From Candidatus Omnitrophota bacterium (GTDB taxonomy: Bacteria; Omnitrophota; Gorgyraeia; 2-01-FULL-45-10), in assembly GCA_023247385.1 (NCBI GenBank), contig JAHFGO010000002.1, positions 5,220 through 37,532 on the forward strand: a stretch of DNA of 32,313 nt, read 5' to 3'. Shown here piece after piece: positions 7,026 to 24,818 of this stretch (positions are counted from its first letter, which is position 1; each line of letters starts with the position of its first letter). The translations under genes and the position numbers were made by a program. A model generated the notes under the pieces. It was not told where the DNA came from. It saw only the letters and a list, made by a program, of their open reading frames with translations, and did no database searches.

Positions 7026-7595
7026 TTACTTTTCAAATCCACCTGTTTTGACAACAATTCCATTCGCGAAGGTTACCATCACATCATGCCCGCGCGAATT
7101 GTTCATGTAATACCATTTATCGCTTTGCATAATTTCGGCAAAGGATTTTCTTTCAGACGTCTTCCCCCACGCGATATAGGCAGGGCACCCTTTCGATACA
7201 TATACTTCTTCTTTGGTCATACCAGCTACTACCCCGCCATTCTCAACTTGTTCTTTTTTATCGGGAGAAAGCTTCTCTAACCCAATCTCCTTTTTGTCCT
7301 TTACGAAAAACTTATCCCACTTATTAGAATCAGCCGCTATCCTATATGTTTTTTTGGTATCGATTCTGATGAACCCAATGCTTCCACCCGTGCTTTTCTC
7401 AATCTTCACTTCGGTACCTACCGGAATTAAATTTTTGAAAATCCTCATGTTGTGCCAGAATACTGTATTTCCGTCCGCGCGTAAATTGGAGCGGGCATAA
7501 GCCGTCTCCCCTTTTTCCAGTATAGCCGCATATGTGCTGCCTATAAAACTTAAACAGCAAATAACCACTAAAAACATCAACGCCAGCTTCTTCAT
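7026..7595 (-). CDS. Secreted protein of unknown function, BamE/SmpA-OmlA-like C-terminal half (paralog of 8343..8909)
   Basis: 189 aa. Signal peptide MKKLALMFLVVICCLSFIGSTYA|A. 'GMTKEEVYVSKGCPA' resembles the BamE/OmlA motif. Collinear similarity to the 8343..8909 product (YAR.NL...W.N, VGT.VK, KF.VK, GMTKEEVY, IM.S..W.Y). 4-nt overlap with the upstream fabZ gene. Confidence 0.6.
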   Translation of the reverse strand: MKKLALMFLVVICCLSFIGSTYAAILEKGETAYARSNLRADGNTVFWHNMRIFKNLIPVGTEVKIEKSTGGSIGFIRIDTKKTYRIAADSNKWDKFFVKDKKEIGLEKLSPDKKEQVENGGVVAGMTKEEVYVSKGCPAYIAWGKTSERKSFAEIMQSDKWYYMNNSRGHDVMVTFANGIVVKTGGFEK

Positions 7596-8053
7596 ACAGC
7601 TCCCCCTTTCTGTTTTGTTAATACCAATTCTCCTTCTGCTACAATCCTACCATTTACTTTACAAACTACCTCTGTTTTAAAAAAGGGTTCGAAATATTGT
7701 GCGACCCTTGCTTTGATGGTCAGGGTGTCTCCCGGCAATACGGCATATTTAAATTTAACGTCAGAAATGCGAGAGAGAAAATACCCCCCAGGGTGCTTCA
7801 AAGAGATATTCTTTTGTTCGTTCAAGTGTAAGGCGCACGCAATCCCGCTTGTCTGAGCCATGCTCTCAACAATCAAGACTCCCGGCATAAGCGGCTCATC
7901 AGGAAAATGCCCTTTGAAATACTCCTCATCTTTTTTTATATATTTTGAGGCTACGATACACCCAGGCTCAACCGATACTACTTTATCGATAAAAATAAAC
8001 GGCTCACGATGAGGGAGCAACTCTCGGATATCTTTATTGAGGAGACTTTCCAC
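7592..8053 (-). CDS. fabZ: 3-hydroxyacyl-ACP dehydratase (FabZ family)
   Basis: 153 aa. 'LPHREPFIFIDKV' and 'FKGHFPDEPLMPGVLIVESMAQ' are the canonical FabZ hot-dog active-site motifs (His...Glu). Confidence 0.9.
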   Translation of the reverse strand: MESLLNKDIRELLPHREPFIFIDKVVSVEPGCIVASKYIKKDEEYFKGHFPDEPLMPGVLIVESMAQTSGIACALHLNEQKNISLKHPGGYFLSRISDVKFKYAVLPGDTLTIKARVAQYFEPFFKTEVVCKVNGRIVAEGELVLTKQKGGAV

Positions 8054-8318
8054 TATTATTATCCTCTATAAATTTAACTATGGTTTCAACCGAAACTAAA
8101 ACTTTTCTGCCCACATCGGCATCAGGGATCCTTGCTCCGAATTCCTTTTCGAGCGCAACCACCAATTCAAGGGCATCTAAAGAATCAAGCCCTACCCCTC
8201 CGGCCCCAAATAAAGGCTGCGTATTTTTAATGCTTTCTGGAGGAATCTTCAGCCTTACTACCTTGACAATCATTTTTTTCACACGATCATAGAAATCGAT
8301 TTCGTTCCCTTGTTCCAT
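8034..8318 (-). CDS. Acyl carrier protein
   Basis: 94 aa. Phosphopantetheine attachment motif 'GLDSLDALELVVALEKEFG'. AGGAGG Shine-Dalgarno about 10 nt upstream (rc of 8325-8335). Confidence 0.9.
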   Translation of the reverse strand: MEQGNEIDFYDRVKKMIVKVVRLKIPPESIKNTQPLFGAGGVGLDSLDALELVVALEKEFGARIPDADVGRKVLVSVETIVKFIEDNNSGKSPQ

Positions 8319-8342: not shown

Positions 8343-8909
8343 TTATCTCCAAATACCTTCTGTTCTAGTAACCTGCTTTGTGGAGGGGTTGAATTCAACG
8401 CCAATATTTTTTCCAAAACGGCTTCTCTTATATACCCATAGATTGGAGGCCATAATATTATCATAAGTCTTATTGTCGGTATTCCCATCGATCACCCAAG
8501 CTGGAGGCCCCATCGCTATATATACCTCTTCCTTTGTCATTCCGACTCTCGCCACTGCGTTGTTAATATTGTCCTGGATATCTTTGGAAAATCTATTAAT
8601 ATTAACAGGGCCCTTAACAACAAATTTCTCCATAAATTTTTCGGCATTTGCTCCGACATCTAAGGTATATGTCGCTCCAGTATCAACATCTGTAAGACTG
8701 GCTGATTTACCCTTAGGCTTAACTTTGAATTTTGTACCAACTATCAAATATTCCGGAGAGGCCTGCCAATTAACCCAAGTTATATGATTAGCTTTAATAA
8801 CTTTAAGATTGCATCTGGCGTAATAAATATTATCCTCTTCTGCCCTGGCATCGCTGAGCAATACCCCTAATATCAACCCCCCGGCCAACAAACAAGACAC
8901 ATTTTTCAT
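8343..8909 (-). CDS. Secreted protein of unknown function, BamE/SmpA-OmlA-like C-terminal half (paralog of 7026..7595)
   Basis: ORF 8343..8939 trimmed to the ATG at 8909 (MKNVSCLLAGG...). This start follows a GGGGGA RBS and lies after the upstream stop (8914-8916). Signal peptide ...SDARA|EE, then 'GMTKEEVYIAMGPPA'. Confidence 0.6.
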   Translation of the reverse strand: MKNVSCLLAGGLILGVLLSDARAEEDNIYYARCNLKVIKANHITWVNWQASPEYLIVGTKFKVKPKGKSASLTDVDTGATYTLDVGANAEKFMEKFVVKGPVNINRFSKDIQDNINNAVARVGMTKEEVYIAMGPPAWVIDGNTDNKTYDNIMASNLWVYKRSRFGKNIGVEFNPSTKQVTRTEGIWR

Positions 8910-8913
8910 AGCA

Positions 8914-10335
8914 TTATCCCCCAGCAATGTCCTTAGCAACCTTACACGCTGAAAGCATTGAAGGCATCACCCCTCCCCCGTATCCCGCCCAATGTCCTAC
9001 CACATGAAAATTGCCCGCTATGTTCCGCATGAAAGGCAGATTTTCCAAAAAACCCGCTTCTTGCTCCCAGCCGTATGCAGCTCCAAAGGTATTACCCGTA
9101 TAACGTTGCAGCGTGCACGGGCCAGCGATGCTTTGGTATACAATTCGATTGGCAATCCCTGGTACAATTTTACTCAATTCAGCTACCAGTCTTTTACCAA
9201 TATCATCCTTGGATATCGCTGTAGAGTGTTTATTGTAGCACATCGGCCAATGGATTACAATACTGCCGCATTCTTTAGGGGCTACCGATGAATCCAGCGC
9301 AGAAGGAAAACTCAAGCCAAAAGAGGCGTGTGCATTCTTGTTTAGCATTCCATCGAGATCGTAGGAATTAAAATACCCCAGGTCCGGCGGCAGGCCGTAG
9401 CTGCGTAAATTATCATTAACCCCTATATAAACCATAACGAACGATCCCGAAACCTTCATCTTCTTTATTTTATTAACCTTCTCCTTATCTACTGCGCAAC
9501 CTTCCATTAATCTAATAACGGTCTTGATATCCATATTTGAAATGATATGCGCGGCCTTCACTTTACGGCCGCCTTTTGTAACAATGCCTGTTGTGTTTGT
9601 TTCGTCATAGAGAATGCGGGTAACTTCTTCGGTAAAGAAAACCTCACCTCCGCGATTCCTTAACGCGCCTACAAGCGCATTACTCAATCCCTGAATGCCG
9701 CCACGGATCCGAAATGCCCCTCCCCTCACATAGTGTATCAGAATATTTGAAAGAGCAATCGCTGATGCCTCCCGCGCGGGCAATCCCAAAAAGGTACAAT
9801 ATGTAGAAAGCACTGATTTAAGCTTCTCGTCAGAAATAAAAGAGGACAGCAGGTCGTAAAACGATATCTCCATGAAATCATATAGCAGGCTCCCATCGCC
9901 CGTACCACACATCGTCTGAAGCGATGACATATATATTTTTTCCATCGCGGAAAAAGATCTATCGATCCCTTCCTGCTCTGCTGGAAATATCATTTTTAAG
10001 GTGTCTTTATACTGGGTGACATCGGCAGGAATATCGACAGCCATATCGGGGAATATATTGCGGCGCAAAGGATTTAATTCAATAAAATCAAGTTCATCCC
10101 ATATCCCAAGTTTTTCTTCTATTATATGACGCAACGGCTCATCCTTACGCAGCCCTCCAATCGAATCAACACACGCATCAAATGTATATCCATCAACCGA
10201 AAATGAAGAACAGTAGCCTCCCGGCCGTTTTTCTTTCTCAAACACAGCAACGCGCGCCCCTTTTTTTGCTAAAAGGAGGGCGCACGTTAATCCCCCAATT
10301 CCTCCGCCGATAATCACCGCGTCATACTTATTCAT
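8914..10335 (-). CDS. FAD-dependent oxidoreductase, phytoene desaturase (CrtI)-like family
   Basis: 473 aa. N-terminal dinucleotide fold 'YDAVIIGGGIGGLTCALLLAKKGARVAVFEKEKRPGGYC'. Length and C-terminal 'GHWAGYGGGVMPSMLSA' are typical of CrtI/amine-oxidase-fold enzymes. Confidence 0.85.
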   Translation of the reverse strand: MNKYDAVIIGGGIGGLTCALLLAKKGARVAVFEKEKRPGGYCSSFSVDGYTFDACVDSIGGLRKDEPLRHIIEEKLGIWDELDFIELNPLRRNIFPDMAVDIPADVTQYKDTLKMIFPAEQEGIDRSFSAMEKIYMSSLQTMCGTGDGSLLYDFMEISFYDLLSSFISDEKLKSVLSTYCTFLGLPAREASAIALSNILIHYVRGGAFRIRGGIQGLSNALVGALRNRGGEVFFTEEVTRILYDETNTTGIVTKGGRKVKAAHIISNMDIKTVIRLMEGCAVDKEKVNKIKKMKVSGSFVMVYIGVNDNLRSYGLPPDLGYFNSYDLDGMLNKNAHASFGLSFPSALDSSVAPKECGSIVIHWPMCYNKHSTAISKDDIGKRLVAELSKIVPGIANRIVYQSIAGPCTLQRYTGNTFGAAYGWEQEAGFLENLPFMRNIAGNFHVVGHWAGYGGGVMPSMLSACKVAKDIAGG

Positions 10336-10345
10336 GATTCTAAAT

Positions 10346-10486
10346 CATATGTGTCCAAAATAGGCAATGTTTCCTTAACGAGAATATGATTTTGAGATTC
10401 GATTCCAAAATACCCCCTCACCCTACCCTCTCCCCCTTTAGGGGGAGAGGAAAAAGGTGAGGGGGAAGAGCTTATTTTGGACAGCA
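10346..10486. mobile_element. MITE-like non-coding insertion flanked by a 12-bp direct duplication
   Basis: ATGATTCTAAAT occurs at 10334-10345 and again at 10487-10498. Just inside lie inverted repeats TGTCCAAAATA (10352-10362) and TATTTTGGACA (10473-10483). The centre is a 53-nt GC-rich hairpin (10413-10465). There is no ORF. Removing the element would leave fabG-TAG-AATC-ATG-crtI-like, matching the tight spacing elsewhere in the operon. Confidence 0.5.
10413..10465 (-). terminator. Strong GC-rich hairpin inside the MITE-like element, possibly an intrinsic terminator/attenuator
   Basis: CCCCCTCACC/GGTGAGGGGG and CCTCTCCCCC/GGGGGAGAGG form two perfect 10-bp stems, with a TTTA loop and a small internal loop. 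On the minus-strand RNA the hairpin is followed by UAUUUUGG. A U-rich stretch also follows on the plus strand. Confidence 0.35.
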
Positions 10487-10492
10487 ATGATT

Positions 10493-11245
10493 CTAAATAC
10501 CTAATCCTCCGTCGATTAAAAGCGTCTGGCCAGCGATATAATCTGAGTGATTAGAAGCGAGGAATAGTACTGCCCCAACAATATCACCTACCGTGCCAAT
10601 TCTACCCAGAGGAATTCCCTGTATTAATTCTTTAAGCGCTTCTTTGTCCATATCTTTAAGGATATCCGTCTCTATCAAGCCGGGGGCAACAGCATTAACC
10701 TGGATGCCAAACCTACCTAATTCACGGGCAACGGCGCGGGTAAAGCTTATAACGCCTCCCTTGGAAGCAGCATAATTCGCCTGGCCTGCGAGCCCTTTAA
10801 ACGCACTTAATGAAGACATGTTAATGATCTTGCCTTCGTGCTGCCGCATCATAATCCGCGATACCCATTTGGTGACATAATAAACGCTTTTTAGATTTGT
10901 ATCTATGACTTCCACCCAATCCTCATCACTCATTAAGGCAAGAAAAGAATCTCGTTTTAACCCGGCGTTATTTATTAAGATATCGATGCGTTCGTAGCGT
11001 TTGACTACCTCATCGACCATCCGCTCTACCTCTTTACCATTTGTCACATCCGCGCGCAATGCCTCAATAGCGCAGTGTTTATTTTGCAGCGACTCCACCA
11101 GTGATGTTATTTCCTTCTCGCTTTTATGATAGTTAGCAATTACGCGCGCGCCGCATAGACTCAAGGACTCGGCAATCGCTCTGCCTATCCCGCGGCTTGC
11201 TCCAGTAACAAGCGCTACCTTATTTTTAAAATACGCCTCTTCCAC
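10493..11245 (-). CDS. fabG: 3-oxoacyl-ACP reductase (SDR, FabG family)
   Basis: 'VALVTGASRGIGRAIA' (TGxxxGxG), 'NNAG', 'YAASKGG' (YxxxK) and 'PGLIETD'. The long ORF (to 11392) overlaps the upstream gene by 119 nt. I trimmed it to the GTG at 11245, preceded by GGGAGG with 5-nt spacing, which gives a typical 250-aa FabG. Confidence 0.85.
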   Translation of the reverse strand: MEEAYFKNKVALVTGASRGIGRAIAESLSLCGARVIANYHKSEKEITSLVESLQNKHCAIEALRADVTNGKEVERMVDEVVKRYERIDILINNAGLKRDSFLALMSDEDWVEVIDTNLKSVYYVTKWVSRIMMRQHEGKIINMSSLSAFKGLAGQANYAASKGGVISFTRAVARELGRFGIQVNAVAPGLIETDILKDMDKEALKELIQGIPLGRIGTVGDIVGAVLFLASNHSDYIAGQTLLIDGGLGI

Positions 11246-11273
11246 ATTCGCCTCCCAAAGGCCTGAAAACAAC

Positions 11274-12650
11274 TCATCCCAAATATCCCCATAACGGCCC
11301 TTCACGATAAGTTTCTCGTAAAATTGAGTACATTGCTTCCGAGCTTCTAATCCCCAATCCCGGAACAACGCAATGGAAGTTAGCCAGGGCAAACTCTTTA
11401 ACTTTTACCATCAATTCATCAGTAGATATTTCAGAAGATAAATAAAAACGCGGAAACAAAAGACTCGCGCGTGCCGTGATAACTCCTTCGCGGATACTTA
11501 TTTTCTCCAATTCCGTTCCAGGATAAATACGAATTCCTAGCATGGCGATAATGGCATCGCCTTCAAGCTTACGAATTGCCTCAATCCCTTCCTTTAATGA
11601 AGCGTGGTTTTCGCCTGGCGCGCCAAAAATGATATAATGCGCGCATTTGATGCCAATCTCATTACACAATCGACTTGCTCGCAGCACCTCTTTTATCGTA
11701 AATGGCTTACGCAGCTTTGCCAATACCCTATCGGATAATGCGTCAGAACCAAACTCGACGTGCGTGCATCCTGCCTTTTTCATGAGCTTAAGAAGTTTCT
11801 TAGAAATACCATGCGGGGAAGCGAAGCAGCTCCAATGCATCTTTACATTCTTCTTCAATAGCGCCTCGCATACCGCTGCTGCATGTTCGGGAGGATATGT
11901 AAATACGTCATCCACGAAAAAGATATGGGGTACTGCATATTTTTTCTGCAGGAGACGCATCTCTTCGGCTATTATTTCTGGCGCCCTAAGCCGATAACTC
12001 CTGCCTTCGATCAAAGGATAGGTGCAATACGCACATTTAAAACCGCATCCCCGCTTAGTCTGCACATTCGCCATTCCGGCGAATTTTACATACATGCGAT
12101 TATCAACAAGACTGTAATCCAACACGGAATCGATCGAATGGTTCAAAGACCTCGCTCGGTTGCCGCGGATCCTGCCCTCCTGTTTCCAGAGAAGGTTGTC
12201 GATCGTTTTATAGTTCTTTTCGTCTCTACTAAAACGCGTCAGGAGTTCGGCCAGCGCATCCTCCCCCTCGCCTACGATTCCCCATTTACAGTTCAGGAAT
12301 GATAATATTTCTTTAGGGAAAAGAGAGAATGCCGACCCGCCCAAAACGAGAGGCGCACGCGTATAAAGTTTGATAGCCTTTATGACCTCTTTCACGGCAG
12401 GTAAATAAGAAACGCTTTGAGGAAAGGTGAGATTGTCAATGTTGCGCAGTGATATGCCAACAAAATCTGGGGCTATCCGTTCTATAGATCTTTTGATATC
12501 GTCATGCGCATCCGCGCTGAAACAGAGATCGAGTATTGAAACACTAAACCCAGCCCTCCTAAGCGCATGCGCAATGTATAAAAGACCGAGGGGTGCTACG
12601 GGATATGGGACCTTCTCCTGATTTGCTGAAACCAGCAATACTTTTTTCAT
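11274..12650 (-). CDS. B12-binding-domain radical SAM enzyme (class B-like)
   Basis: 458 aa. N-terminal cobalamin-binding-type fold ('KVLLVSANQEKVPYPVAPLGLLYIAHALRRAGFSVSILD'), then the radical SAM cluster motif 'TKRGCGFKCAYCTY' (CxxxCxxC). Confidence 0.9.
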   Translation of the reverse strand: MKKVLLVSANQEKVPYPVAPLGLLYIAHALRRAGFSVSILDLCFSADAHDDIKRSIERIAPDFVGISLRNIDNLTFPQSVSYLPAVKEVIKAIKLYTRAPLVLGGSAFSLFPKEILSFLNCKWGIVGEGEDALAELLTRFSRDEKNYKTIDNLLWKQEGRIRGNRARSLNHSIDSVLDYSLVDNRMYVKFAGMANVQTKRGCGFKCAYCTYPLIEGRSYRLRAPEIIAEEMRLLQKKYAVPHIFFVDDVFTYPPEHAAAVCEALLKKNVKMHWSCFASPHGISKKLLKLMKKAGCTHVEFGSDALSDRVLAKLRKPFTIKEVLRASRLCNEIGIKCAHYIIFGAPGENHASLKEGIEAIRKLEGDAIIAMLGIRIYPGTELEKISIREGVITARASLLFPRFYLSSEISTDELMVKVKEFALANFHCVVPGLGIRSSEAMYSILRETYREGPLWGYLG

Positions 12651-12653
12651 AAT

Positions 12654-13961
12654 CTAGTTAAGGTTTTTGAGCAACCGACTGACGGAAATGTGAAAACCGA
12701 TATTCATAGGCCAGGAGAAAAGAGGGTATGCCTTTGACCTATGAAGCCTCTTAAATATAGAATAACTTGAGTACGATTTCTTCAGCGCCCACCGGTAACC
12801 CTTGCTTAATGTCTCGGCGCTCATTCTCCTGGGATGAAAAACCACATGTGATGTGTCGTAGTTACTCCAGTCGTGATCGAATATCCTGCCTTCTTTATTC
12901 AAGTCATCGAAAACCCTCGTCCCTGGATAAGGAGTCATGATGCCTAAATAAACGGCCTCGAGCCCAGATTGCTTGAGAAACTGCCAGTATGTTTCGAATA
13001 CCGTTTCGTCATCCTGGTCAAACCCAAATATAAAAGACCCCATAATCCCTATCCCATAGCTCTGAATCGTACGGATTGCGGCGAGATATTCTTTGGTTAC
13101 ATTTGGCTTCTTCCCTACATCTTTAAGCACCTCGTCGGAAAGCGATTCAAAGCCTATCAGAAAGCCCATACACCCGCTTTCTTTCGCAAGGGCTAAAAGC
13201 TCTTCATCTTTAGCCAAATCCATAGAAGTCTGGCCCAGCCAATTAAGTTTATAAGGTTTGATTCTTTCAAATAACTCCCGCGCATGATTCCGATCGCCGA
13301 TAATATTATCATCTACAAAGAAGACCACATTTTTTATACTGAATCTTGTTGTAGTAGGTTTAAACATTGCGATTTCTTTTACGACTTCATCTACCGGACG
13401 CACCCGGTACTTTCCTCCGAAAAATCTGGTTACAGAACAAAAATGGCAGCCAAAAGGGCATCCGCGCGTAGTTTCCACAAACTCAACAGGCACATATTTA
13501 TCCTTGTTGAGCAAATTCCGTTTCATGGGGATAAAGGAGCTCGGGTTGACATGTGCTTCCGCCTTATACACCTTCTTCAGCGCGCCTCGCTTAAAATCAT
13601 CGATGAGCTGGTGCCAAACTTGTTCCGCTTCTCCTATAACGATGGTATCGGCATGATGGATCGCCTCGTCCGGACACGCGCTCACATGCATCCCCCCCAT
13701 CACCACGGTTACGCCTCGCCTGCGAAACTCTTCCGCAATTTCATATGCCCGCGGCGCCAAAGGAGTCATGATCGTAATCCCAACCAGATCATACGGAGCA
13801 TCGAAATTAATTTGTTCGACCCGCTCATCAATGATAGTCACTTCGACATCGGGAGGAGCATGGGTGGAAAGGATGGGGAGGCTCAGGAAAGGGAGATTAA
13901 AAGCGAATCCTTCCCCTAAAAATTTACTTTTTGCAATTGGCGCTACAAGTAAAAGCCTCAT
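12654..13961 (-). CDS. B12-binding-domain radical SAM enzyme (class B-like), second copy
   Basis: 435 aa. 'MRLLLVAP...' B12-type N-domain ('VVMGGMHVSACPDEA'), then 'TTRGCPFGCHFCSV' (CxxxCxxC). 3-nt gap to the next gene. Confidence 0.9.
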   Translation of the reverse strand: MRLLLVAPIAKSKFLGEGFAFNLPFLSLPILSTHAPPDVEVTIIDERVEQINFDAPYDLVGITIMTPLAPRAYEIAEEFRRRGVTVVMGGMHVSACPDEAIHHADTIVIGEAEQVWHQLIDDFKRGALKKVYKAEAHVNPSSFIPMKRNLLNKDKYVPVEFVETTRGCPFGCHFCSVTRFFGGKYRVRPVDEVVKEIAMFKPTTTRFSIKNVVFFVDDNIIGDRNHARELFERIKPYKLNWLGQTSMDLAKDEELLALAKESGCMGFLIGFESLSDEVLKDVGKKPNVTKEYLAAIRTIQSYGIGIMGSFIFGFDQDDETVFETYWQFLKQSGLEAVYLGIMTPYPGTRVFDDLNKEGRIFDHDWSNYDTSHVVFHPRRMSAETLSKGYRWALKKSYSSYSIFKRLHRSKAYPLFSWPMNIGFHISVSRLLKNLN

Positions 13962-14994
13962 CTTTTATCCTCCAGCACGTGGGGTCGCTTGCCAAATAGT
14001 CGCCTGTCATGTTATAGGCGTTACCGCGGCACCCGTAGCAGTTTTCGTGATGACCGCATGTTTTGCATGGGCCTTTTATGGTGGTACGAATTTGCGATAA
14101 TTCATGCATTACCTTACTGTTTCGTAGTATTGAGGACAATTTCGCGGTTCGAATATTGCCAAGCTGTATGTCAATGCCAACACAAGGCTGAATAAATCCC
14201 TGTGAATTTAAAGTACAACTGTATAGATGTCTCTTGCAAAAAAATCCAGCAATAGGAGGACATGCATCCCATGTAAACTCAAATTCATTTTTATCGATTT
14301 GTACAAGGTTTTCGAATAAGCGTTGAATCGTTTCTTTGTCGGGGAAAATGTCGTTGTGCTCAATTGCCGATCCCTTACGCGTTATGCACTCTACATACGG
14401 AAGTATATTATTGTTACGCGCCCATCGCCATATTGTAGGAATTTCTTTTATGGTATAAGTAGTCACAATCGTTTCTATTCCTAGATTATGCTTTTTATCC
14501 GGATAGCCTGCTTTGCGAAGATAGGCGAAGCCCCGCATCATTGAAGCATATGCGCCATCACAACCGGTAAGCTGATCGAACGACTTTTCTTTCATGCTGG
14601 AATATTTTATAACCGGGACAACTTCATTATCAAATAGAAATTTTGCCATTTCAGCATTAATTAGTGTGCCGTTTGTAAACAGCACGTGTTCCATGCCTAG
14701 CTTATGCACATAGTGAATGATATCTCGCAGTTTAACATCTAGTAGAGGTTCACCGGCTCCGACATAAATAATCTTACGCGCGCCTAATGCCTTAGCCTGA
14801 CTTACGGCATCGAAAATTTCTTCTTGCTCTAGCTCATTTTCTCTAAAAAGATTTTTACCCGCGTAGCAGTACACGCAACGCAGGTTGCACCGACTTGACA
14901 ACTCAATTTCCATAGACAGAAGTTGATTATTCTTTGATGCAAAAGCTATTTCTTCATCGCTGAATCCTAAGACTCTCTGCATTTTACGTATCAT
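13924..14994 (-). CDS. Radical SAM enzyme with C-terminal SPASM-type auxiliary cluster domain
   Basis: 356 aa. 'IELSSRCNLRCVYCYA' (CxxxCxxC). C-terminal Cys-rich 'CVGIDIQLGN...CKTCGHHENCYGCRGNAY' matches the SPASM CxxCxxxxxCxxC pattern. 38-nt overlap with the downstream gene. Confidence 0.85.
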   Translation of the reverse strand: MIRKMQRVLGFSDEEIAFASKNNQLLSMEIELSSRCNLRCVYCYAGKNLFRENELEQEEIFDAVSQAKALGARKIIYVGAGEPLLDVKLRDIIHYVHKLGMEHVLFTNGTLINAEMAKFLFDNEVVPVIKYSSMKEKSFDQLTGCDGAYASMMRGFAYLRKAGYPDKKHNLGIETIVTTYTIKEIPTIWRWARNNNILPYVECITRKGSAIEHNDIFPDKETIQRLFENLVQIDKNEFEFTWDACPPIAGFFCKRHLYSCTLNSQGFIQPCVGIDIQLGNIRTAKLSSILRNSKVMHELSQIRTTIKGPCKTCGHHENCYGCRGNAYNMTGDYLASDPTCWRIKDEAFTCSANCKK

Positions 14995-15007
14995 TGCAGC
15001 CCCTTAT

Positions 15008-16315
15008 TTATTTTGTTGTTGCGTTCCTGTGATCGATAAAGGTTTTCGGTTTTCTATTTTTTCCATTATCGCTTTGCAGTGAATATACTTCTCCAATTGA
15101 AGCGAATTTCAATATTGGAACTACGCGTGCTCTCGCTGCAATTTGTGCAGAGAGCAAACGCTTAAATGACTCGCTCCTTTTTTTTGAGCCTACTTTTATT
15201 ACTACTTTGTCAGAAAGATCATCACCTGTAAATGCTTCGATTACATAATTATACACACCATCGATACTCGCTATCGCATTCTCAATCGCCTTCGGATACA
15301 CCTTTGTGCCCCTATACTTTAGCATATGGGCCTTTCTTCCCATGATTGGTCCAATACGCGAAGAGTTTCGTCCGCATGCGCAAGGCTTGGTGATTTTAAA
15401 GGTAATGTCGCCCGTGCAATAACGTAAAAGAGGCATACCTCGCGTTTGAAGGGTAGTAAGCACAAGCTCACCCATTGCTCCATCAGGAACTACATTTCCA
15501 TTTTCGTCAATAATCTCAGTAATAATCAAATCTGAATGCTCGTGCCCGCCATGTTTAAACTTGCATTCGCAATAAGAGATAGCCGCTTCGCTATTGCCGA
15601 ATGTAGAATAAAGGTCTAACGGCCATGTTTTCTGCAATAATTCGCCGATACCACTTAAACGAAAATCTTGATCTCTAATGCTGTCCCCTACCAATAACGC
15701 CTTTTTAACTGATAACGACAAGGGGTTGCCCCCTCCCTCCATTATCTCTTTTCCTAATTGCAGCAAAAATGACGGTACAGTCATGATACCGGTGGGCTTA
15801 AGTTTTTGCAAAAGAAGTATCTGCCTTTTTATGTTATGCATACCCGCGCGATATACGCCTGCCCCTAGTTCTATAATGCCTAGATAATATGCGATGCCAG
15901 CCATAAAAAGATTATCCACAGTCACTGCTAAATGAAATATATCGTTCGCAGTAGCGCCTGCGCATGAAAAGCTATAGACTTCGTTAAGCGCCAAACGCTG
16001 CAGATCGTGTTTGGTTAAAACGATAAATACGGGCTCACCTGTCGTTCCGGTTGTAGCGACAATATCTGCAATTTCTCTTTTATCAACACAATAAAAACTA
16101 TTATTATATTTTTGCAATTGCTCCTTTTTTGTAAGAGGCAATGTTGCAAGACTCTGCATTGATTTTATATCGGAATATTTTATTTTGGTTTTCCGAAGCA
16201 CGTTTTTATAAAATGGGGAATTTTTACTTGCATAACACACCATCTCTCGTAAAAGGCGGACTTGCTCCCTCTCGATTGTGCTTTTGGATTTAAATTCAAG
16301 AGCCTTTTTTAACAC
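15008..16315 (-). CDS. Adenylate-forming enzyme, phenylacetate-CoA ligase (PaaK)/F390-synthetase-like
   Basis: 435 aa, the size of the short PaaK-type ANL enzymes. 'ATTGTTGEPVFIVL' (P-loop-like A3 motif), 'YSTFGNSEA' and 'RYCTGDITF' (A8-like). Confidence 0.75.
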   Translation of the reverse strand: MLKKALEFKSKSTIEREQVRLLREMVCYASKNSPFYKNVLRKTKIKYSDIKSMQSLATLPLTKKEQLQKYNNSFYCVDKREIADIVATTGTTGEPVFIVLTKHDLQRLALNEVYSFSCAGATANDIFHLAVTVDNLFMAGIAYYLGIIELGAGVYRAGMHNIKRQILLLQKLKPTGIMTVPSFLLQLGKEIMEGGGNPLSLSVKKALLVGDSIRDQDFRLSGIGELLQKTWPLDLYSTFGNSEAAISYCECKFKHGGHEHSDLIITEIIDENGNVVPDGAMGELVLTTLQTRGMPLLRYCTGDITFKITKPCACGRNSSRIGPIMGRKAHMLKYRGTKVYPKAIENAIASIDGVYNYVIEAFTGDDLSDKVVIKVGSKKRSESFKRLLSAQIAARARVVPILKFASIGEVYSLQSDNGKNRKPKTFIDHRNATTK

Positions 16316-16344: not shown

Positions 16345-17418
16345 TTATTTTCGTTTCCGCGTAAACGCGGGGGACTCAACAAGCATCTTAACGGCACTGC
16401 CGTTACTACCTATATTTGAATACAAAATACTTTCTTGCGTTCGACCAAAAGGACACCATTTAGTATTTTTAGGTAAATTAAAAAGATCGGCGCTTAGCGC
16501 CACACCTAGCACACCTGCCGCATCAAAAACATTACCTATCACATCGCTCAAGAAAAAAAATTTATCCTGTTCTTTGGTTATTTCAGATTTGTTTTTATTA
16601 TAGCTAAAGACGTTATCTCCCAAATTATTTCCCAAATAGACTATTTCTGGGATATCCTGATGAAAGCACCCAGGCGCTTCATCATTAACGCCTGACACAG
16701 ATTTTTTATGCATAATTTTTTCTATCTGTTCTTGTGTGAAGATAGTTCTCTGCTGGTCTTTTAAAATAGCGATAGGTCTTCTGTTAGCAAGCGTCGCATT
16801 CTTCATTTTCTCCAACACAAGCATTCCTGCAGATTCGTATCCAAAACCAGAGGCGTAAAATTCATCGCTTAAATTGTTGTCTATAATACTAACGCCCCCT
16901 ACAAAAGCCATATCGCACTCATCTGCAACAAGCGCGTCGCACGCCGCAAGTATCGCCTCAGCAGAAGAAGTACTCCCGCCCACAAAAGTAAGGTTGGGCC
17001 CTTTAGCGTCTATTTGAATTGCCAACCACGACGCAAGTGAATTCGCGTTGGTAAATGGGAACAATGTTGAGCTTGTTAAAGCAGGGCCGCTTTTTTTATA
17101 GAGACGAAAGAATTCGGTTTTGAATTCTTCGATTCCATAGCTATTTCCCAAAAAAATGCCTGTTCGCTCTGGTGATGGCAATCCCATTTTTAATCCCGCT
17201 GCGTGTGATGCTTTTAAAAATGCTGTCAATAATAGCTTCTGAATCCGGTATAGTTCACGCGGCCCGGTATTTAGGGAAGCGATTTCTTTTTCGTACATCT
17301 GGAGATCGATTTGCTGTGTTATTTTTTTCCCCAATACAATATTCTCACACAATGCAAACGCAGTCTCGCCTGCGCTGCTTAAGACACACTCCCCAGTAAT
17401 AGCAATCTCCGTTTCCAT
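16345..17418 (-). CDS. Ketosynthase-like partner subunit (CLF-like; active-site Cys and both His absent)
   Basis: ORF trimmed to the ATG at 17418 (METEIAITGE...), 12 nt after the upstream KS stop. KS fold ('IAITGECVLSSAGE'), but 'FVGGSTSSAEAILAA' replaces the Cys motif and 'IGNVFDAAGVLG' replaces GH..GA.G. Confidence 0.7.
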   Translation of the reverse strand: METEIAITGECVLSSAGETAFALCENIVLGKKITQQIDLQMYEKEIASLNTGPRELYRIQKLLLTAFLKASHAAGLKMGLPSPERTGIFLGNSYGIEEFKTEFFRLYKKSGPALTSSTLFPFTNANSLASWLAIQIDAKGPNLTFVGGSTSSAEAILAACDALVADECDMAFVGGVSIIDNNLSDEFYASGFGYESAGMLVLEKMKNATLANRRPIAILKDQQRTIFTQEQIEKIMHKKSVSGVNDEAPGCFHQDIPEIVYLGNNLGDNVFSYNKNKSEITKEQDKFFFLSDVIGNVFDAAGVLGVALSADLFNLPKNTKWCPFGRTQESILYSNIGSNGSAVKMLVESPAFTRKRK

Positions 17419-17429
17419 CTCTTTTAAGA

Positions 17430-18653
17430 TTATGCCTTCCTGAACACCAACGCGGTATTTTGCCCGCCAAAACCCGCTGACAATGACATGCATGTTTTAA
17501 TGTTTTTTTTGACCGCGTCATTCACCACATACTGCAAATCGCACTCCGGGTCAGGCTCTTCAAAATTTATGGTAGGAGGAATCATGCTATGCTCCATGGC
17601 TTTTACGCAGCTAATTGCCTCTATGGCGGAAGCTGCGCCAAGCATATGGCCTATCATAGATTTCATAGAGCTGATTTTAATTGCGTAGGCCTTTTCTCCA
17701 AACACACGTTTTATAGCCCTGGTCTCCATGCCATCATTGTATTGGGTGCCTGTGCCATGCGCGCAAATATAATCAACGGCATCAATCGTTCCTTCTATAT
17801 TAGATAAGGCATTGTTCATTGCCCGTGAGAGCCCCTCCCCATCCTTGTGAGGTCTTACCATGTGGAAGGCATCCGCGGAGGACCCAGCAGACGCTAATGT
17901 ACAATATATCTTGGCGCCGCGTTTATACGCGTGGTTCTTCTCTTCTAAAACCATTACGCCGGCCCCCTCGCTTAATGCAAGGCCCGTGCGTCTCTTATCA
18001 AACGGACGCACTTTTCCGTCAGTGGTAAGGGCGTTTAATGCGCTAAAACCTCGAAACACAAATTCACTTAATATGTCGGCGCCTCCGGCAAGCATCATGG
18101 CTGCCCTATTATTCCTGATTTGCGCGGTTGCGCTGCGAATCGCATCCGCACCGGAACAACATGCGGTAGTAATCGAAATGACTGGCCCACGCAAGGAAAA
18201 TCTTTTCTTAATAGAATCGGCAATAGCATGCAGGCAATGTTGTCTTAAAAGACCTGGATCTCCTTTTTTAGATAGAAAAAATTTTTCATTCATATATCGC
18301 TCGCCTGATTCAATGCCTGCTAGTATAGTTCCTACGGCAACACCCATCGATTGCAATAATGGCTGCTCAGCCCTTGCATCTTGTAATGCATGCTGACAGG
18401 CTAACGCAAAAAGTCTGGCGCATCGGTCATATTCTTTCTTCCAACAATCTTCCAAAAACGATTCAAAACCAACGATCTCCCCGCCAACATTACATTTATG
18501 CCCTCGCACATCGAATCCATGAATAGGCTTAATGGCATTAACACCATTGCATAACTTATCCCAAAAATCCTGCGTGCCCTTTCCGCACTCCAAAGGCGTC
18601 ACTACGCCAACCCCTGTAACCACTATTTCTTTCGTAGATAAATCTAAGCGCAT
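17430..18653 (-). CDS. Beta-ketoacyl-ACP synthase (FabF/FabB-like), catalytically complete
   Basis: Trimmed to the ATG at 18653 (MRLDLSTKEIVVTGVGVV...). 'ITTACCSGADAIRSA' (Cys), 'CAHGTGTQYND' (His), 'IGHMLGAASAIEA' (His), 'SAGFGGQNTALVF'. Confidence 0.9.
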   Translation of the reverse strand: MRLDLSTKEIVVTGVGVVTPLECGKGTQDFWDKLCNGVNAIKPIHGFDVRGHKCNVGGEIVGFESFLEDCWKKEYDRCARLFALACQHALQDARAEQPLLQSMGVAVGTILAGIESGERYMNEKFFLSKKGDPGLLRQHCLHAIADSIKKRFSLRGPVISITTACCSGADAIRSATAQIRNNRAAMMLAGGADILSEFVFRGFSALNALTTDGKVRPFDKRRTGLALSEGAGVMVLEEKNHAYKRGAKIYCTLASAGSSADAFHMVRPHKDGEGLSRAMNNALSNIEGTIDAVDYICAHGTGTQYNDGMETRAIKRVFGEKAYAIKISSMKSMIGHMLGAASAIEAISCVKAMEHSMIPPTINFEEPDPECDLQYVVNDAVKKNIKTCMSLSAGFGGQNTALVFRKA

Positions 18654-19735
18654 AGTAACACGTCTTCTTTTTCTCGTTTTTTCTTCCACCATGGGCGGTA
18701 TACTTTAAAATATAAAATTGAACCAACTTGGCGCAGCATTGATTTCTCAAAAGAAACATCCCCGAGGCATCTTTGACAATATGGCTCTTTTATGCGTAAT
18801 CTATCAAACCCACCGATGACATCTTGCACCTTTTTTTGAGTTAGCGCTTTCGTAATAGAGGTTTCTTTTATATTTCCAAAATTTGTACTACCATTGAAAT
18901 CTGCACAACAAAATACTATACTACCATTACTTAGAATACCAAAATGTGTCTTAAGTCCTTCACAATAACCAATATGCGCTCTTGTCATTTTTTTAGCAGA
19001 TAGACCATGATGAATCCAGTCGCCCAAAACCCTTGTCTCTAAGCTGAGCTTATTGGTAATGCTAAGCTTATTCCATCCCATAATGTGAAACGAGGATAAC
19101 TTCTTAATAAGCAACTCTTTTTTGGAACCTAGTTTCTTACAAAATGTATTCTCCTGCACTAATATAGCGATCTCATCAAGCCATTCTAAAAAAGATGCAA
19201 CTATTTCTTTTTTATTACGTATGATGCTATACCTTCTGCTCGGAAGGCTAAGAAATGGGATCGGTGTAGTTAAAAAGGAAAGTGTGGCTTTTGCGGAGCC
19301 ATGATCAATTATTTTAGCAATTAAAGAACAAATTCTTTTTTTATACGTAAAAAAATCAACGGGCACCTTGCGTAATTTAAAAGAATTTTCATTAGGAGTC
19401 TGCGCTGAAAATACAATATGGTCAATTCCTGCCTTTAATATTCTATCCAAAAGTTCTAATGACAAACCCCATCCGTTTGTTGTAAGCACTGCGTTAAGTC
19501 GTCTATGCTTGGTTTCTTTAATAATGTTTTCGAGGTCCGCATATAACGTGGGTTCACCCATAACATGAAAATAAATTGTGTCTGTAAGCCGCTCTTGCGC
19601 AATCTCGTCCAGGGCCCTGCGAACAAGATCGGGTTTCAAGTCTTGCGGTGGACGCAACATCAGCGTATTTGGACAAAACACGCATGAAAAATTGCACCGA
19701 TTGGTAAGCTCGATATGAATTCTTTGAAACGTCAT
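18644..19735 (-). CDS. Radical SAM enzyme (fourth in the cluster), C-terminal Cys-rich extension
   Basis: Trimmed to the ATG at 19735 (MTFQRIHIELTNRCNFSCVFCPN = CxxxCxxC), preceded by AAAGG. C-terminal 'IVFCCADF...PYCQRCLG' suggests a partial SPASM/twitch-type auxiliary cluster. Confidence 0.85.
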   Translation of the reverse strand: MTFQRIHIELTNRCNFSCVFCPNTLMLRPPQDLKPDLVRRALDEIAQERLTDTIYFHVMGEPTLYADLENIIKETKHRRLNAVLTTNGWGLSLELLDRILKAGIDHIVFSAQTPNENSFKLRKVPVDFFTYKKRICSLIAKIIDHGSAKATLSFLTTPIPFLSLPSRRYSIIRNKKEIVASFLEWLDEIAILVQENTFCKKLGSKKELLIKKLSSFHIMGWNKLSITNKLSLETRVLGDWIHHGLSAKKMTRAHIGYCEGLKTHFGILSNGSIVFCCADFNGSTNFGNIKETSITKALTQKKVQDVIGGFDRLRIKEPYCQRCLGDVSFEKSMLRQVGSILYFKVYRPWWKKKREKEDVLLCA

Positions 19736-19748
19736 AGAACGCCTTTCT

Positions 19749-20414
19749 CTACGCAATTTTACCATCTAGGACTTGCATTTGCCGGTCATGATATTCTGTG
19801 GAGATGTTTTCATGGGTAACCATGACTACCGTTACATTGTGCTGCCGGTTCACACGACGTAATAATTGCAGGATATTTTCAGCATTGCGGGAGTCAAGGC
19901 TCCCGGTTGGCTCATCCGCAAAAATCACTGACGGACCGGCCACTAAGGCCCTGGCCACCGCTACCCTCTGGCGCTGTCCCATTGATAAAACTTTGACCGA
20001 TGCCTTAACTCTATCCGTTAATCCTACATCGTTTATAATTTCTCTTGCGCGAAGAAGGCTCTCCTTACGGCTTAACGGTATTTCCATTAATGGTAACATT
20101 ACATTTTCTAGAACATTGAGATTCTGCCAAAGATAAAAAGCCTGAAAAATAAACCCCATATTTTTAACTCGAAAACCTCTTTGACGACAAACCGCGTGAA
20201 TAGATTTTCCATTAAAAAAAACCGTCCCATTGGTTGGTGAATCCAACCCGCCGAGCAAGTGCAACAATGTGGATTTACCACTGCCACTTGGGCCACGAAT
20301 AGCCAATATCTCCCCTGAGTAAACCTGCAAAGAAAGGTTGTTCACTGCTTTAACCTGGCCGTCCTTATAAAATTTGGAAATGTTTTTTGCTTCTAGTAAT
20401 ATTGATTTATTCAT
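19749..20414 (-). CDS. ABC transporter ATP-binding protein (MacB/LolD-type)
   Basis: Trimmed to the ATG at 20414 (MNKSILLEAKN...), giving an ATGAATAA overlap with the permease stop. Walker A 'GPSGSGKST', signature 'LSMGQRQR', Walker B 'IFADEPT', H-loop 'VTHE'. Confidence 0.9.
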   Translation of the reverse strand: MNKSILLEAKNISKFYKDGQVKAVNNLSLQVYSGEILAIRGPSGSGKSTLLHLLGGLDSPTNGTVFFNGKSIHAVCRQRGFRVKNMGFIFQAFYLWQNLNVLENVMLPLMEIPLSRKESLLRAREIINDVGLTDRVKASVKVLSMGQRQRVAVARALVAGPSVIFADEPTGSLDSRNAENILQLLRRVNRQHNVTVVMVTHENISTEYHDRQMQVLDGKIA

Positions 20415-21537
20415 AGCGCAGCACATCGATCGGTTCAATAGAAACCGCCTTGACCGCAGGATAGACTCCTGCAAAAACACCTACCAATACGGAAAGCCCT
20501 AATGATTTAACTATAAAAAGATCGTCAGGCATCATAGATATAAAACCTTGGACTGCTGGAGCGGTAATTAATGACCTTGTCATAGTACAACCCAATATAA
20601 CCCCAATGATGCCGCCCAACAATCCGTATATAGCCGATTCGAAAAGAACGAGCGTAATAATGCGGTACTTACGCCAACCAATAGCCAGAAGGATGCCAAT
20701 TTCTTTTTTCCGTTCCAAAACAGCCGTAGACATAGTGTTAATGATCCCCATAACAACTATAATAAATACCACGATGGAAATTGCCCAGGTAAAACTAAAA
20801 ACTATAGCAAATGGAGTAGAGACAAAATCTCGCACATCCTTAACCTCCAAATCGCTGAATTCAGAATTAATTTTATCCTGTACTTGCTGCGAAATAGCCT
20901 GTCGTTGCTCAAGGCTCATTTTTAATGAATCGTTGCAGTCCAGTCTTACATTAATGGCGGTAATCTTGCCGGGCGTCTTTTTAATCCTCTGCAGGGTGTT
21001 CAAAGGCACGATAATACCGCTTTCTTCCAGCATGTTCATGCTTTGAAAAACCCCGCAAATACGAAATTTCTCACCTCTTATATTGATTTCATCTCCTTGA
21101 AACTTATTCAACCTTTTGGCAGCTACTGCGCCAACTAAGGCATCGTAATCATTCCGTAAAGCAGAACCGACTATTTTAAACTCTTCAAAATGATAGCTGT
21201 CAGTTTCCCATCCATATAGAAGAAAGTATTGTTTAAATTTTACTGCATAAAAATAAAACAAAATCGGGGCTGCTTGCTTTACATGTGGTATGCGTTTTAA
21301 TGATTCTATGTAAGACTGATCTATGGTGCTGGAAAAGATATCTAAAGTAGCCTTTTCCATTACCACCAGATCCGTTCCTCTGGCTTTATAGGTGGATTGC
21401 AGTGACTTTTCCAGATTATCAGTGAGGCCGCTCAAAGAAACAAAAGCAGCTATGCTTATCCCTACACCTAGTATGGTAAGTCCGCTACGTACTTTTTGAT
21501 GCCAAAGATTCTTGCAGACAATTGTAAGTAAACTCAC
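20407..21537 (-). CDS. ABC transporter permease, FtsX/MacB-LolCE type
   Basis: 376 aa. TM1 ('GLTILGVGISIAAFVSL'), then a ~230-aa extracytoplasmic domain, then a C-terminal three-TM FtsX-type bundle ('LLAIGWRKYRIITLVLFESAIYGLLGGIIG'). Confidence 0.85.
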   Translation of the reverse strand: MSLLTIVCKNLWHQKVRSGLTILGVGISIAAFVSLSGLTDNLEKSLQSTYKARGTDLVVMEKATLDIFSSTIDQSYIESLKRIPHVKQAAPILFYFYAVKFKQYFLLYGWETDSYHFEEFKIVGSALRNDYDALVGAVAAKRLNKFQGDEINIRGEKFRICGVFQSMNMLEESGIIVPLNTLQRIKKTPGKITAINVRLDCNDSLKMSLEQRQAISQQVQDKINSEFSDLEVKDVRDFVSTPFAIVFSFTWAISIVVFIIVVMGIINTMSTAVLERKKEIGILLAIGWRKYRIITLVLFESAIYGLLGGIIGVILGCTMTRSLITAPAVQGFISMMPDDLFIVKSLGLSVLVGVFAGVYPAVKAVSIEPIDVLRYE

Positions 21538-22992: not shown

Positions 22993-23208
22993 TACGTATA
23001 ATATACCATTTATTGTCAACATATTACCATATAAAAACACTCGTCGATATGCGAAAATCAGTTAAAATTGAATATGGTCCTCCTATAATAAGGGTAGGTA
23101 TTTTAGGAGTATCAACCCCTTATAAAGAAAGGAAGACCGATGAGAAGTTTAGCACTAAGAAGGAGAAAATCCGCCTTTTTCCAACCAGGTTAGAATTATG
23201 ATACGGCT

Positions 23209-24646: not shown

Positions 24647-24660
24647 ACACACCTCTGCTT

Positions 24661-24678
24661 TCTCTATGATCTCTATGA
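24661..24678 (-). repeat. Tandem 9-bp direct repeat (TCTCTATGA x2) between terminator and RBS
   Basis: Read directly: tctctatga tctctatga at 24661-24678. On the minus strand this is UCAUAGAGA x2, immediately upstream of the Shine-Dalgarno of the first operon gene. Confidence 0.8.
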
Positions 24679-24679
24679 C

Positions 24680-24706
24680 AAAAAAATGGCGCAAAACTTT
24701 TGCGCC
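24680..24706 (-). terminator. Canonical Rho-independent terminator in the operon leader
   Basis: Minus-strand RNA reads GGCGCAAAAGUUUUGCGCC (perfect 19-nt palindrome, 24688-24706), then A UUUUUUU (24680-24686). It ends 33 nt upstream of the OMP start codon. Confidence 0.7.
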
Positions 24707-24818
24707 CTTCATCCATTATAAGAAGTAATTTTCATTTCTTATGCTTAAGTATATACCCCACCCAGCAACAATGTAAACATTTTTTCACCCGCATGTTTTA
24801 TATGCGGCAATCATGAGA

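Follow-up and report, generated by a model that had tools for sequence, protein, structure and literature searches.

A PaaK/FlxY-like ligase and three radical SAM enzymes as the probable tailoring core of a putative envelope-lipid operon of Omnitrophota type

What would place three consecutive radical S-adenosylmethionine (SAM) genes and an adenylate-forming ligase in the midst of fatty acid synthase genes? The question is raised by a 32,313-nucleotide stretch of a contig assigned to a Candidatus Omnitrophota bacterium (JAHFGO010000002.1, positions 5,220 to 37,532; assembly GCA_023247385.1), the whole of which is referred to here as the window. A preliminary description of it had suggested that these enzymes act on acyl carrier protein (ACP)-bound acyl or lipid chains. 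With moderate confidence, we read the four genes as the tailoring core of a 26-gene operon that resembles type II fatty acid and polyketide synthase (FAS/PKS) systems and would make a specialized cell-envelope lipid. Most likely it works as a type II FAS/PKS line resembling those for aryl polyenes, and acyl-ACP substrates for the radical SAM enzymes are suggested by gene context, both here and in the literature.

The operon occupies the minus strand from ~24712 down to 20, and its 26 open reading frames (ORFs) overlap or are tightly spaced, as fits a single operon. The ligase (g10, 15008..16315), a radical SAM enzyme with a SPASM domain (g11, 13924..14994) and two B12-binding radical SAM enzymes (g12, 12654..13961, and g13, 11274..12650) all lie on this strand at the positions first proposed for them, and translations and Pfam matches bore out their coordinates, strand and cysteine motifs. 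The gaps among these genes range from -38 to 31 bp; across the whole operon none exceeds 168 bp, the next longest being 157 bp. Upstream stands a ketosynthase (KS) paired with a protein resembling a chain-length factor (CLF) (16345-18692), and downstream a FabG-like reductase (10493-11242, or to 11392 with an earlier start). The neighbours had been called ACP-dependent enzymes, and KS/CLF, FabG-like, ACP and FabZ-like genes are indeed found in the same operon. An Rfam scan of the whole window matched no family, and thus no cobalamin riboswitch.

The most informative of the four proteins is g13, which passes the NCBIfam equivalog model TIGR04072 (412 bits, with the cutoff at 360; E 2.5e-123; match over profile positions 1-439 of 443). 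The model is titled "lipid biosynthesis B12-binding/radical SAM protein" and named rSAM_ladder_B12. The protein is orthologous to kuste3342 of Kuenenia (43% identity over 405 aa, E 1.6e-125). Pfam assigns a B12-binding domain to both g13 (1.3e-19) and g12 (1.4e-10), confirming the cobalamin-domain N-termini proposed earlier, and the Radical_SAM domain to all three proteins (2e-23, 1.5e-20 and 3e-19; 2.4e-23 for g13). The motif 'GCGFKCAYC' spans residues 202-209 of g13, with C202, C206 and C209 invariant in the family. An AlphaFold2 (AF2) model (pLDDT 89.5) has TsrM as its best fold match in the PDB (TM-score 0.87, E 3e-32), well ahead of OxsB, AprD4, MgmA, CysS and TokK. The second-best sequence profile, below its threshold, is BzaD at 234 bits; BzaD methylates an aromatic sp2 carbon. 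With TsrM, g13 shares not only the fold but also an arginine that shields the lower face of cobalamin: Arg69 of g13, family-invariant within S[IL]RN[IV]DNLT, aligns with Arg69 of TsrM, which blocks the lower axial position (PMC8992657). Sequence identity to TsrM is just 22-23%, however, and Glu273, which blocks SAM binding in TsrM, aligns with Val249. The nearest characterized relatives of g13 methylate sp2 carbons, and radical chemistry is also compatible. The class B radical SAM enzymes CysS and TokK have been solved with pantetheinylated substrates bound (according to the PDB entry titles), so carrier-linked substrates are within reach of the B12-dependent class.

The second cobalamin enzyme, g12, combines the B12-binding and Radical_SAM domains with DUF4070 and carries 'GCPFGCHFC' at residues 168-175. 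By direct comparison it resembles kuste3608 (36% identity) and kuste2803 (34%), and it is 42-49% identical to genes that adjoin the TIGR04072 homologue in loci of Verrucomicrobiota, Geobacteraceae and Syntrophorhabdus; no counterpart was present in the Brocadiaceae loci that were fetched. The closest solved structures are MgmA, the methyl-coenzyme M reductase (MCR) glutamine methylase (9ccb, nearest by sequence at 63 bits), and AprD4.

The third enzyme, g11, is the orthologue of kuste3343 (47% identity over 333 aa) and has a Radical_SAM domain followed by a SPASM domain (3.5e-5), with motifs 'RCNLRCVYC' at 36-43 and 'CKTCGHHENCYGC' at 310-322. In a 34-sequence family alignment C253, C271, C310, C313, C319, C322 and C340 show no variation, and C260 shows almost none. 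These eight conserved auxiliary cysteines indicate a full SPASM domain with two auxiliary clusters, as first proposed. The AF2 model (pLDDT 85) shows the generic SPASM fold of SuiB, SkfB and anSME (TM-score 0.62-0.71, 16-20% identity), with PqqE also among the matches at 0.6-0.7. Only ~30 residues, modelled as two short helices ahead of the barrel, stand in front of the radical SAM motif, and with the CX3CX2C beginning at residue 36 there is no room for a recognition domain (RRE) of the kind that binds precursors of ribosomally synthesized and post-translationally modified peptides (RiPPs). Except for g13, no radical SAM protein of the operon reaches any NCBIfam cutoff, and the best maturase scores fall far short: 132 of the required 500 bits for AhbD, 123 of 500 for NirJ2 and 80 of 381 for PqqE. 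Membership in the AhbD or NirJ families thus fails on score, and there are no heme or siroheme genes in the window. That a non-peptide substrate would be unusual for a SPASM enzyme had nevertheless been overstated, since the nearest profiles here are those of the tetrapyrrole enzymes AhbD and NirJ.

The count of three radical SAM genes stands for this block, but a fourth in the operon had been overlooked. It encodes g07 (18644..19765, minus strand; Pfam Radical_SAM plus SPASM at 7.8e-11), directly upstream of the first KS gene. Its SPASM region is reduced and twitch-like, with C-terminal cysteines only at 268, 286/287, 330 and 333 (four or five in all). The protein scores below every NCBIfam cutoff and is seen only in the three closest loci, L081, L001 and L082.

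The short ANL-type enzyme described next upstream of the radical SAM block was confirmed as such by its AMP-binding and AMP-binding_C_2 domains. This ligase, g10, is the counterpart of kuste3344 and is 46-48% identical to the ligase at the same position in the Brocadiaceae and Jettenia loci. It scores 455.5 bits with FlxY, a model for a ligase of flexirubin clusters (cutoff 520), and 177-201 bits with PaaK models; the nearest PDB entry is PaaK 4r1l (157 bits). The FlxY score, far above those for PaaK, fits a starter-loading role. In aryl-polyene synthesis ApeH adenylates 4-hydroxybenzoate (4-HBA) and loads it directly on ACP (PMC8253772). Of the earlier proposal that the ligase loads a non-acetate starter, the loading therefore fits the profile scores; the identity of the starter was a guess.

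A further part of the preliminary description was that no RiPP precursor is encoded nearby. A small-ORF search of all operon gaps, none longer than 168 bp, yielded nothing conserved, and no overlooked peptide gene came to light. The sole small ORF on the same strand in a gap encodes 51 aa from a TTG start (10332-10487) and lies, unconserved, inside a palindromic insert. The insert is part of a 157-bp spacer (10336-10492) that separates the FabG-like gene from the phytoene-desaturase-like gene and carries a long G/C-rich palindrome (ccccctcacc...cctctccccc taaa gggggagagg...gggtgaggggg). Since L081 has just 49 bp and L001 just 8 bp at the equivalent place, the palindrome looks like a REP/MITE-like insertion in the operon.

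The earlier interpretation points the right way, but the system itself is not a new kind, although novelty had been implied. Judged by its genes and their order, the operon is a member of the candidate-ladderane cluster family (kuste3335-3352 type), which is known from many phyla other than those of anammox bacteria. Rattray et al. (2009) described a candidate ladderane cluster of anammox bacteria with synteny to Desulfotalea psychrophila, Geobacter and Pelobacter (PMC2649909). Their gene set comprised SAM radical enzymes, a "phytoene dehydrogenase", a "phenylacetyl-CoA ligase", non-canonical FabF paralogues, the methyltransferase kuste3347 and the deacetylase-like kuste3351. Javidpour et al. 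(2016) put the cluster through heterologous expression and list kuste3344 as a phenylacetyl-CoA ligase, kuste3343 and kuste3342 as SAM radical enzymes, kuste3341 as FabG, 3340 as ACP, 3339 as FabZ, 3338 as a methylase and 3336 as a desaturase (PMC4790861; the Kuenenia sequences compared here are from its Table S6). Apart from the inserted g12, the window follows the order from kuste3344 to 3336. The block of interest thus corresponds to kuste3344/3343/3342 of a cluster described in 2009, for which a curated NCBIfam model exists and which occurs in hundreds of genomes.

The likeness to kuste3335-3352 (Kuenenia; loci L003 and L009) extends over the ordered ligase, SPASM enzyme, B12 enzyme, FabG, ACP, FabZ and methyltransferase genes and includes a flavoprotein resembling phytoene dehydrogenase (PDH), two pairs of a KS with a non-canonical KS, an ATP-grasp protein and a kuste3351-like deacetylase. 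The window differs in having the DUF4070-type enzyme inserted between the other two radical SAM genes and the additional twitch-like enzyme upstream. MMPL and GT2 of the anammox version are replaced in the window by genes for a beta-barrel protein, lipoproteins, acyltransferases of LpxL and PlsC type and an ABC system resembling LolCDE. The anammox Cluster I (kuste3603-3608: amxACP, amxFabZ, amxFabF2/FabFmut, PDH and a B12 radical SAM enzyme) offers the same six enzyme classes, among them a KS/CLF-like heterodimer and an enzyme of B12, radical SAM and DUF4070 type, but the gene order differs, and the 36% identity of g12 to kuste3608 is at the level of paralogues and no better than in the Verrucomicrobiota and Geobacter homologues. 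The operon is not demonstrably orthologous to Cluster I. The residues of its KS/CLF pairs parallel both ApeO/ApeC and the amxFabF2/FabFmut heterodimer, which decarboxylates malonyl-ACP (bioRxiv 10.64898/2026.05.19.726425).

Aryl-polyene (APE) and flexirubin clusters (ApeA-R; Flx) share with the window the FlxY-like ligase class, KS/CLF, a ketoreductase (KR) and a FabZ/ApeI-like dehydratase without an enoyl reductase, as well as a SAM methyltransferase, acyltransferases of lysophospholipid or lipid-A type and genes for outer-membrane delivery (PMC8253772). APE clusters lack the radical SAM, PDH-like, ATP-grasp and deacetylase genes, all of which the window has. They also have an ApeI/ApeP pair in place of the single dehydratase, and MMPL plus LolA/LolB-like export in place of the ABC/FtsX system. 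All Flx and Ape profile scores of the window proteins are below cutoff.

How widely the arrangement is kept was assessed by a pattern and tblastn scan of one genome per GTDB species, in which at least 593 species genomes encode relatives of g13. The carriers include Omnitrophota, Brocadiaceae, Nitrospirota, NC10, many Desulfobacterota, Syntrophia, Geobacterales, Verrucomicrobiota, Fibrobacterota, Bacteroidota and Chloroflexota. In 34 of the 42 loci of at least 15 kb, a KS, ACP or KR gene lies within 10 kb of the g13 homologue. The order ligase, SPASM enzyme, B12 enzyme, then ACP, FabZ, methyltransferase and PDH is common to loci of Brocadiaceae (L003), Jettenia (L009), NC10 (L008), Dissulfurispiraceae (L011), Nitrospiraceae (L004) and a deltaproteobacterial metagenome-assembled genome (MAG; L014), which also share the two KS/CLF pairs, the ATP-grasp protein and the deacetylase. 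Identities to the window proteins across these loci are 41-48% for the ligase, 43-50% for the SPASM enzyme and 41-46% for the B12 enzyme. Synteny is complete, with identical gene order and 61-85% identity per protein, in L081 (GCA_041643075.1). An Omnitrophota MAG (L001) matches over the part covered, with 44-78% identity for most proteins and just 32% for the secreted protein g16, and L082 (GCA_052360565.1, DBJWYK010000095.1) has the same order over its covered part. As a separate observation, the kuste3342/kuste3343 orthologues of three Nitrospirota-labelled loci (L004, L006 and L007) are 57-66% identical to the Kuenenia proteins, comparable to the 63-71% of the Brocadiaceae and Jettenia orthologues, a closeness that points to recent transfer or to bins with the wrong label.

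The nearest named relatives of g13 and g11 (65-70% identity) are Omnitrophota, and the lineage of the cluster is accordingly, on sequence grounds, of Omnitrophota type. The 9.8-kb binned contig L082, whose g11 homologue is ~85% identical, is labelled Candidatus Wunengus sp. YC61, of a Brocadiaceae anammox genus, and mis-binning or horizontal transfer could possibly explain this conflict. GTDB representatives of Brocadiaceae hold only the 43-46% orthologue. Tetranucleotide frequencies of the window correlate with those of Brocadiaceae loci at r = 0.92 and with those of an Omnitrophota locus at 0.56, a comparison that largely tracks GC content, and the window holds no marker genes for host placement. 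The host is probably not an anammox bacterium.

The remaining genes of the operon, all on the minus strand, encode type II assembly enzymes and a set of envelope functions. In the pair upstream of the ligase (16345..18692), KS1 keeps the Cys-His-His triad; in CLF1 the Cys column holds Thr, and neither His is present. A second pair consists of KS2 (2861-4075), which likewise keeps Cys-His-His, and CLF2 (1760-2845), with Tyr at the catalytic Cys column and again without both His. The two CLFs match PDB entry 9s5h and the Iga and Ape CLFs at just 33-47 bits. The FabG-like 3-oxoacyl-ACP reductase (10493..11392) scores 284 bits with TIGR01830 (cutoff 297.75) and 243 with FlxB. Its start is ambiguous: the ORF can be extended by 50 codons to a TTG at 11392, with a 119-nt overlap with the 3' end of the TIGR04072 gene. 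This extension (11243-11392) aligns in L081 and L001, gene callers place the start later, and it probably lies near 11242. The phytoene-desaturase-family flavoprotein (8914..10335; Pfam Amino_oxidase) is 31% identical to both Kuenenia PDH homologues, kuste3336 and kuste3607. The ACP (8034-8318) and the FabZ-like dehydratase (7592-8053; PRK00006 131 bits, cutoff 113) are flanked by two secreted paralogues, g16 (8343-8939) and g19 (7026-7595), which are 31% identical (E 2e-21), conserved in L081 and L001, and without a match to any Pfam or NCBIfam family. The dehydratase has weak ApeI/ApeP-like Pfam matches (ApeI-like 26.6 bits, below the cutoff of 28.5). In PDB sequence searches it reached 96.6 bits with canonical FabZ compared with 74-82 for 8ayc, 8ayb, 7qv0 and 8ayi, which we take to be amxFabZ entries, and neither it nor the ACP is closer to the amxFabZ and amxACP proteins than to canonical ones. 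No enoyl reductase was found in Pfam and profile scans of the window ORFs.

Further downstream are a SAM methyltransferase (6145-6987), which had no close structure in the PDB sequence search, an ATP-grasp ligase (4983-6152), an LpxL-like acyltransferase (4084-4986), a DedA/VTT protein (1098-1826) and a polysaccharide deacetylase with DUF3473 (20-1084; 265.5 bits with the XrtA-type model, cutoff 276.2). The upstream end of the operon encodes a beta-barrel-like protein with a signal peptide and a C-terminal YLF (23855-24712), two lipoproteins with lipoboxes (23209-23835 and 21561-22223), a PlsC-type acyltransferase (22273-23040), an FtsX/MacB permease (20407-21537) and an ABC ATPase (19749-20480). 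Signal peptides and lipoboxes thus mark the envelope proteins of the operon. MMPL and GT2 had zero matches in any window ORF, and no LolA match was obtained among the window proteins.

Several features around the operon were recorded in passing. A terminator-like hairpin followed by a T-run (24688-24706, minus strand) falls inside the first codons of the 23855-24712 ORF. Translation probably begins 22 codons further on, at the Met of the signal peptide MKVIKLAVVALAMVVL, and the hairpin would then belong to a leader. An insertion sequence (25088-26671) lies ~375 bp upstream of the first ORF, beside the best promoter-like sites (24847-24819 and 24777-24748). Its terminal inverted repeats are imperfect and 24 nt long, and it carries two ORFs that overlap on the plus strand (25241-25570 and 25315-26652, the latter with an rve_3 integrase core). 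Further upstream, a minus-strand ORF of 1577 aa (27565-32298; local GC 0.50-0.55) has weak Peptidase_C39 and C92 (YaeF/YiiX) matches. When 8000 word-sharing candidates from a collection of 5.8 billion proteins were scored against it, just 5 proved homologous at E<=1e-10. Past position 1 of the window, directly downstream of the deacetylase gene, there are three small ORFs (69, 106 and 92 aa) with no Pfam match, followed by a beta-oxidation-type set whose link to the cluster is uncertain: genes for an alpha/beta hydrolase, a 4HBT thioesterase, a FadD-like ligase, a thiolase, a FadB-like enzyme and an acyl-CoA dehydrogenase.

Taken as one pathway, these genes suggest the following model. The PaaK/FlxY-like ligase would activate a non-acetate, possibly aromatic, acid and load it on the cluster ACP, as ApeH does, and the two KS/CLF heterodimers would lengthen the chain together with the FabG-like reductase and the FabZ-like dehydratase. 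As the operon is without an enoyl reductase, enoyl or polyene intermediates would persist, and the phytoene-desaturase-like flavoprotein may adjust the saturation or geometry of the chain. The radical SAM enzymes would act on the ACP- or pantetheine-tethered chain or starter: g13, being TsrM-like, most likely by methylating an sp2 carbon, or forming a C-C bond there, with the help of cobalamin, g12 possibly in a second alkylation or a ring-forming step, and g11 in a radical dehydrogenation, decarboxylation or cross-link. The methyltransferase, ATP-grasp protein and deacetylase could prepare a head group, and the LpxL- and PlsC-type acyltransferases would join the chain to a phospholipid- or glycolipid-type anchor, before the LolCDE-like ABC system, the lipoproteins and the beta-barrel protein carry the product to the outer membrane.

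A number of points weigh against this proposal. No member of the cluster family has been tied to a product and no radical SAM enzyme of the family has been assayed; kuste3342 and kuste3343 were undetectable on expression in E. coli (PMC4790861). The remaining 8 of the 42 long loci hold more distant homologues of g13 (35-40% identity) in unrelated contexts, and the two that were inspected (37-39% homologues) have no FAS genes and lie in housekeeping contexts, so that a lipid context is not universal in the wider TIGR04072 family. With Val at the position of the SAM-blocking Glu, the non-radical mechanism of TsrM is not simply transferable to g13. FlxY itself is only a putative ligase, and g10 scores under its cutoff. 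The anammox version of the cluster has MMPL and GT2 (kuste3335; found in L003), and the window is without both. The three small ORFs just outside the left end of the window also count on this side.

Other products and substrates have to be weighed against the same evidence. A pigment lipid resembling aryl polyenes or flexirubins, made by an anaerobe, is a sub-case of the envelope-lipid reading that we regard as rather unlikely. The ligase would then load a hydroxy-aromatic acid, the KS/CLF pairs would assemble a polyene, and the TsrM/BzaD-like B12 enzyme would C-methylate the ring or polyene, replacing or supplementing an ApeB-type methyltransferase. The ligase and reductase scores with FlxY (455 bits) and FlxB (243 bits), the ApeI/ApeP-like matches of the dehydratase, the KS/CLF pairs without an enoyl reductase, and the lysophospholipid acyltransferase (LPLAT)-type and outer-membrane export genes all point this way, as does the methylation of aromatic sp2 carbons by TsrM and BzaD, the nearest characterized relatives of g13. 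A further point in favour is that the anammox version carries MMPL and GT2, both also found in APE clusters (PMC8253772). Every APE or flexirubin model is scored under cutoff, however; the window has neither an ApeI/ApeP pair nor a LolA/LolB-like or MMPL gene, canonical APE clusters are without radical SAM genes, and we know of no aryl polyene reported from anammox bacteria or the other carriers. That the operon makes ladderanes (fused cyclobutanes) or another carbocyclic, radical-cyclized or branched lipid, as a compact version of the three-locus Kuenenia pathway, appears improbable. It would account for homologues of kuste3342, 3343, 3608/2803 and PDH in one operon (by direct comparison), for the ligase, KS/CLF, ACP, FabZ and methyltransferase counterparts identified through the Brocadiaceae and Jettenia loci and gene order, for the ~85%-identical contig of the same order labelled Ca. 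Wunengus, and for the best tetranucleotide agreement (0.92) being with Brocadiaceae loci. Yet that label depends on one 9.8-kb binned contig, the tetranucleotide match is largely GC-driven, and Omnitrophota supply the closest named relatives, at 65-70% identity. Hundreds of genomes other than those of anammox bacteria contain these modules, no organisms but anammox bacteria are known to have ladderanes, and Desulfotalea carries a syntenic cluster and makes no ladderanes (PMC2649909). The identity of g12 to kuste3608 is no better than that of Verrucomicrobiota homologues, and the FabZ and ACP do not lean towards the anammox proteins. If the pathway were nonetheless ladderane-like, it would belong to a non-anammox bacterium, or form a second system in a Brocadiaceae host, and the ligase-SPASM-B12 triad would build and load a carbocyclic starter that is then elongated in the ordinary way; this would be the 'type b' ladderane route, which isotope labelling and amxFabZ data favour (PMC10139942).

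Two further roles for the radical SAM enzymes were rejected. One is that the B12 enzymes and the phytoene-desaturase-like protein modify isoprenoids, hopanoid or carotenoid, in the manner of HpnP, HpnR and HpnJ. This we hold to be very improbable, since the matches to HpnJ, HpnR and BchE are sub-threshold (103-116 bits, where 578-650 would be required), the window encodes neither a synthase for squalene or phytoene nor a cyclase, and the Kuenenia PDH homologues, although of the CrtI family that the flavoprotein also matches, are without CrtI activity (PMC4790861). The other is that the radical SAM genes mature a RiPP peptide or a cofactor (heme d1 or heme b, PQQ, the B12 lower ligand) and sit beside fatty acid genes by chance, to which we give hardly any credence. 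The best sub-threshold profiles, AhbD, NirJ and PqqE for g11 and BzaD for g13, and the RiPP maturases and anSME among the structural neighbours of g11 are what such a role would predict. Every one of these scores is far under its curated cutoff, no radical SAM protein falls in a non-lipid maturase family, and the window encodes neither a precursor peptide nor an RRE, nor any enzyme of the tetrapyrrole, PQQ or Bza pathways. The ligase-SPASM-B12 block is kept with ACP and KS genes across phyla.

Two questions have stood open since 2002-2009: how ladderanes are made, and what the "ladderane-type" clusters of non-anammox bacteria produce. In reviews, ladderane biosynthesis still appears among the unresolved problems (PMC13459092, PMC10139942), and antiSMASH-type "ladderane" clusters have been reported without a known product from Omnitrophota and other non-anammox phyla (PMC9902471 / bioRxiv 10.1101/2022.12.20.521206). 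Cultivable carriers of related clusters are already known, so the window opens no new route to the product. What it does bring is that homologues of all three Kuenenia radical SAM classes can share one operon, and that the ligase-SPASM-B12 block keeps its order in anammox bacteria as well as in Nitrospirota, NC10 and clusters of Omnitrophota type. The TsrM-like g13 with its conserved cobalamin-shielding Arg further suggests a reaction open to testing, in which a methyl or alkyl group would pass to an sp2 carbon of a starter or enoyl chain tethered to ACP. Together, the shared operon, the conserved block and the TsrM-like enzyme argue that the kuste3335-3352-type cluster is not ladderane-specific.

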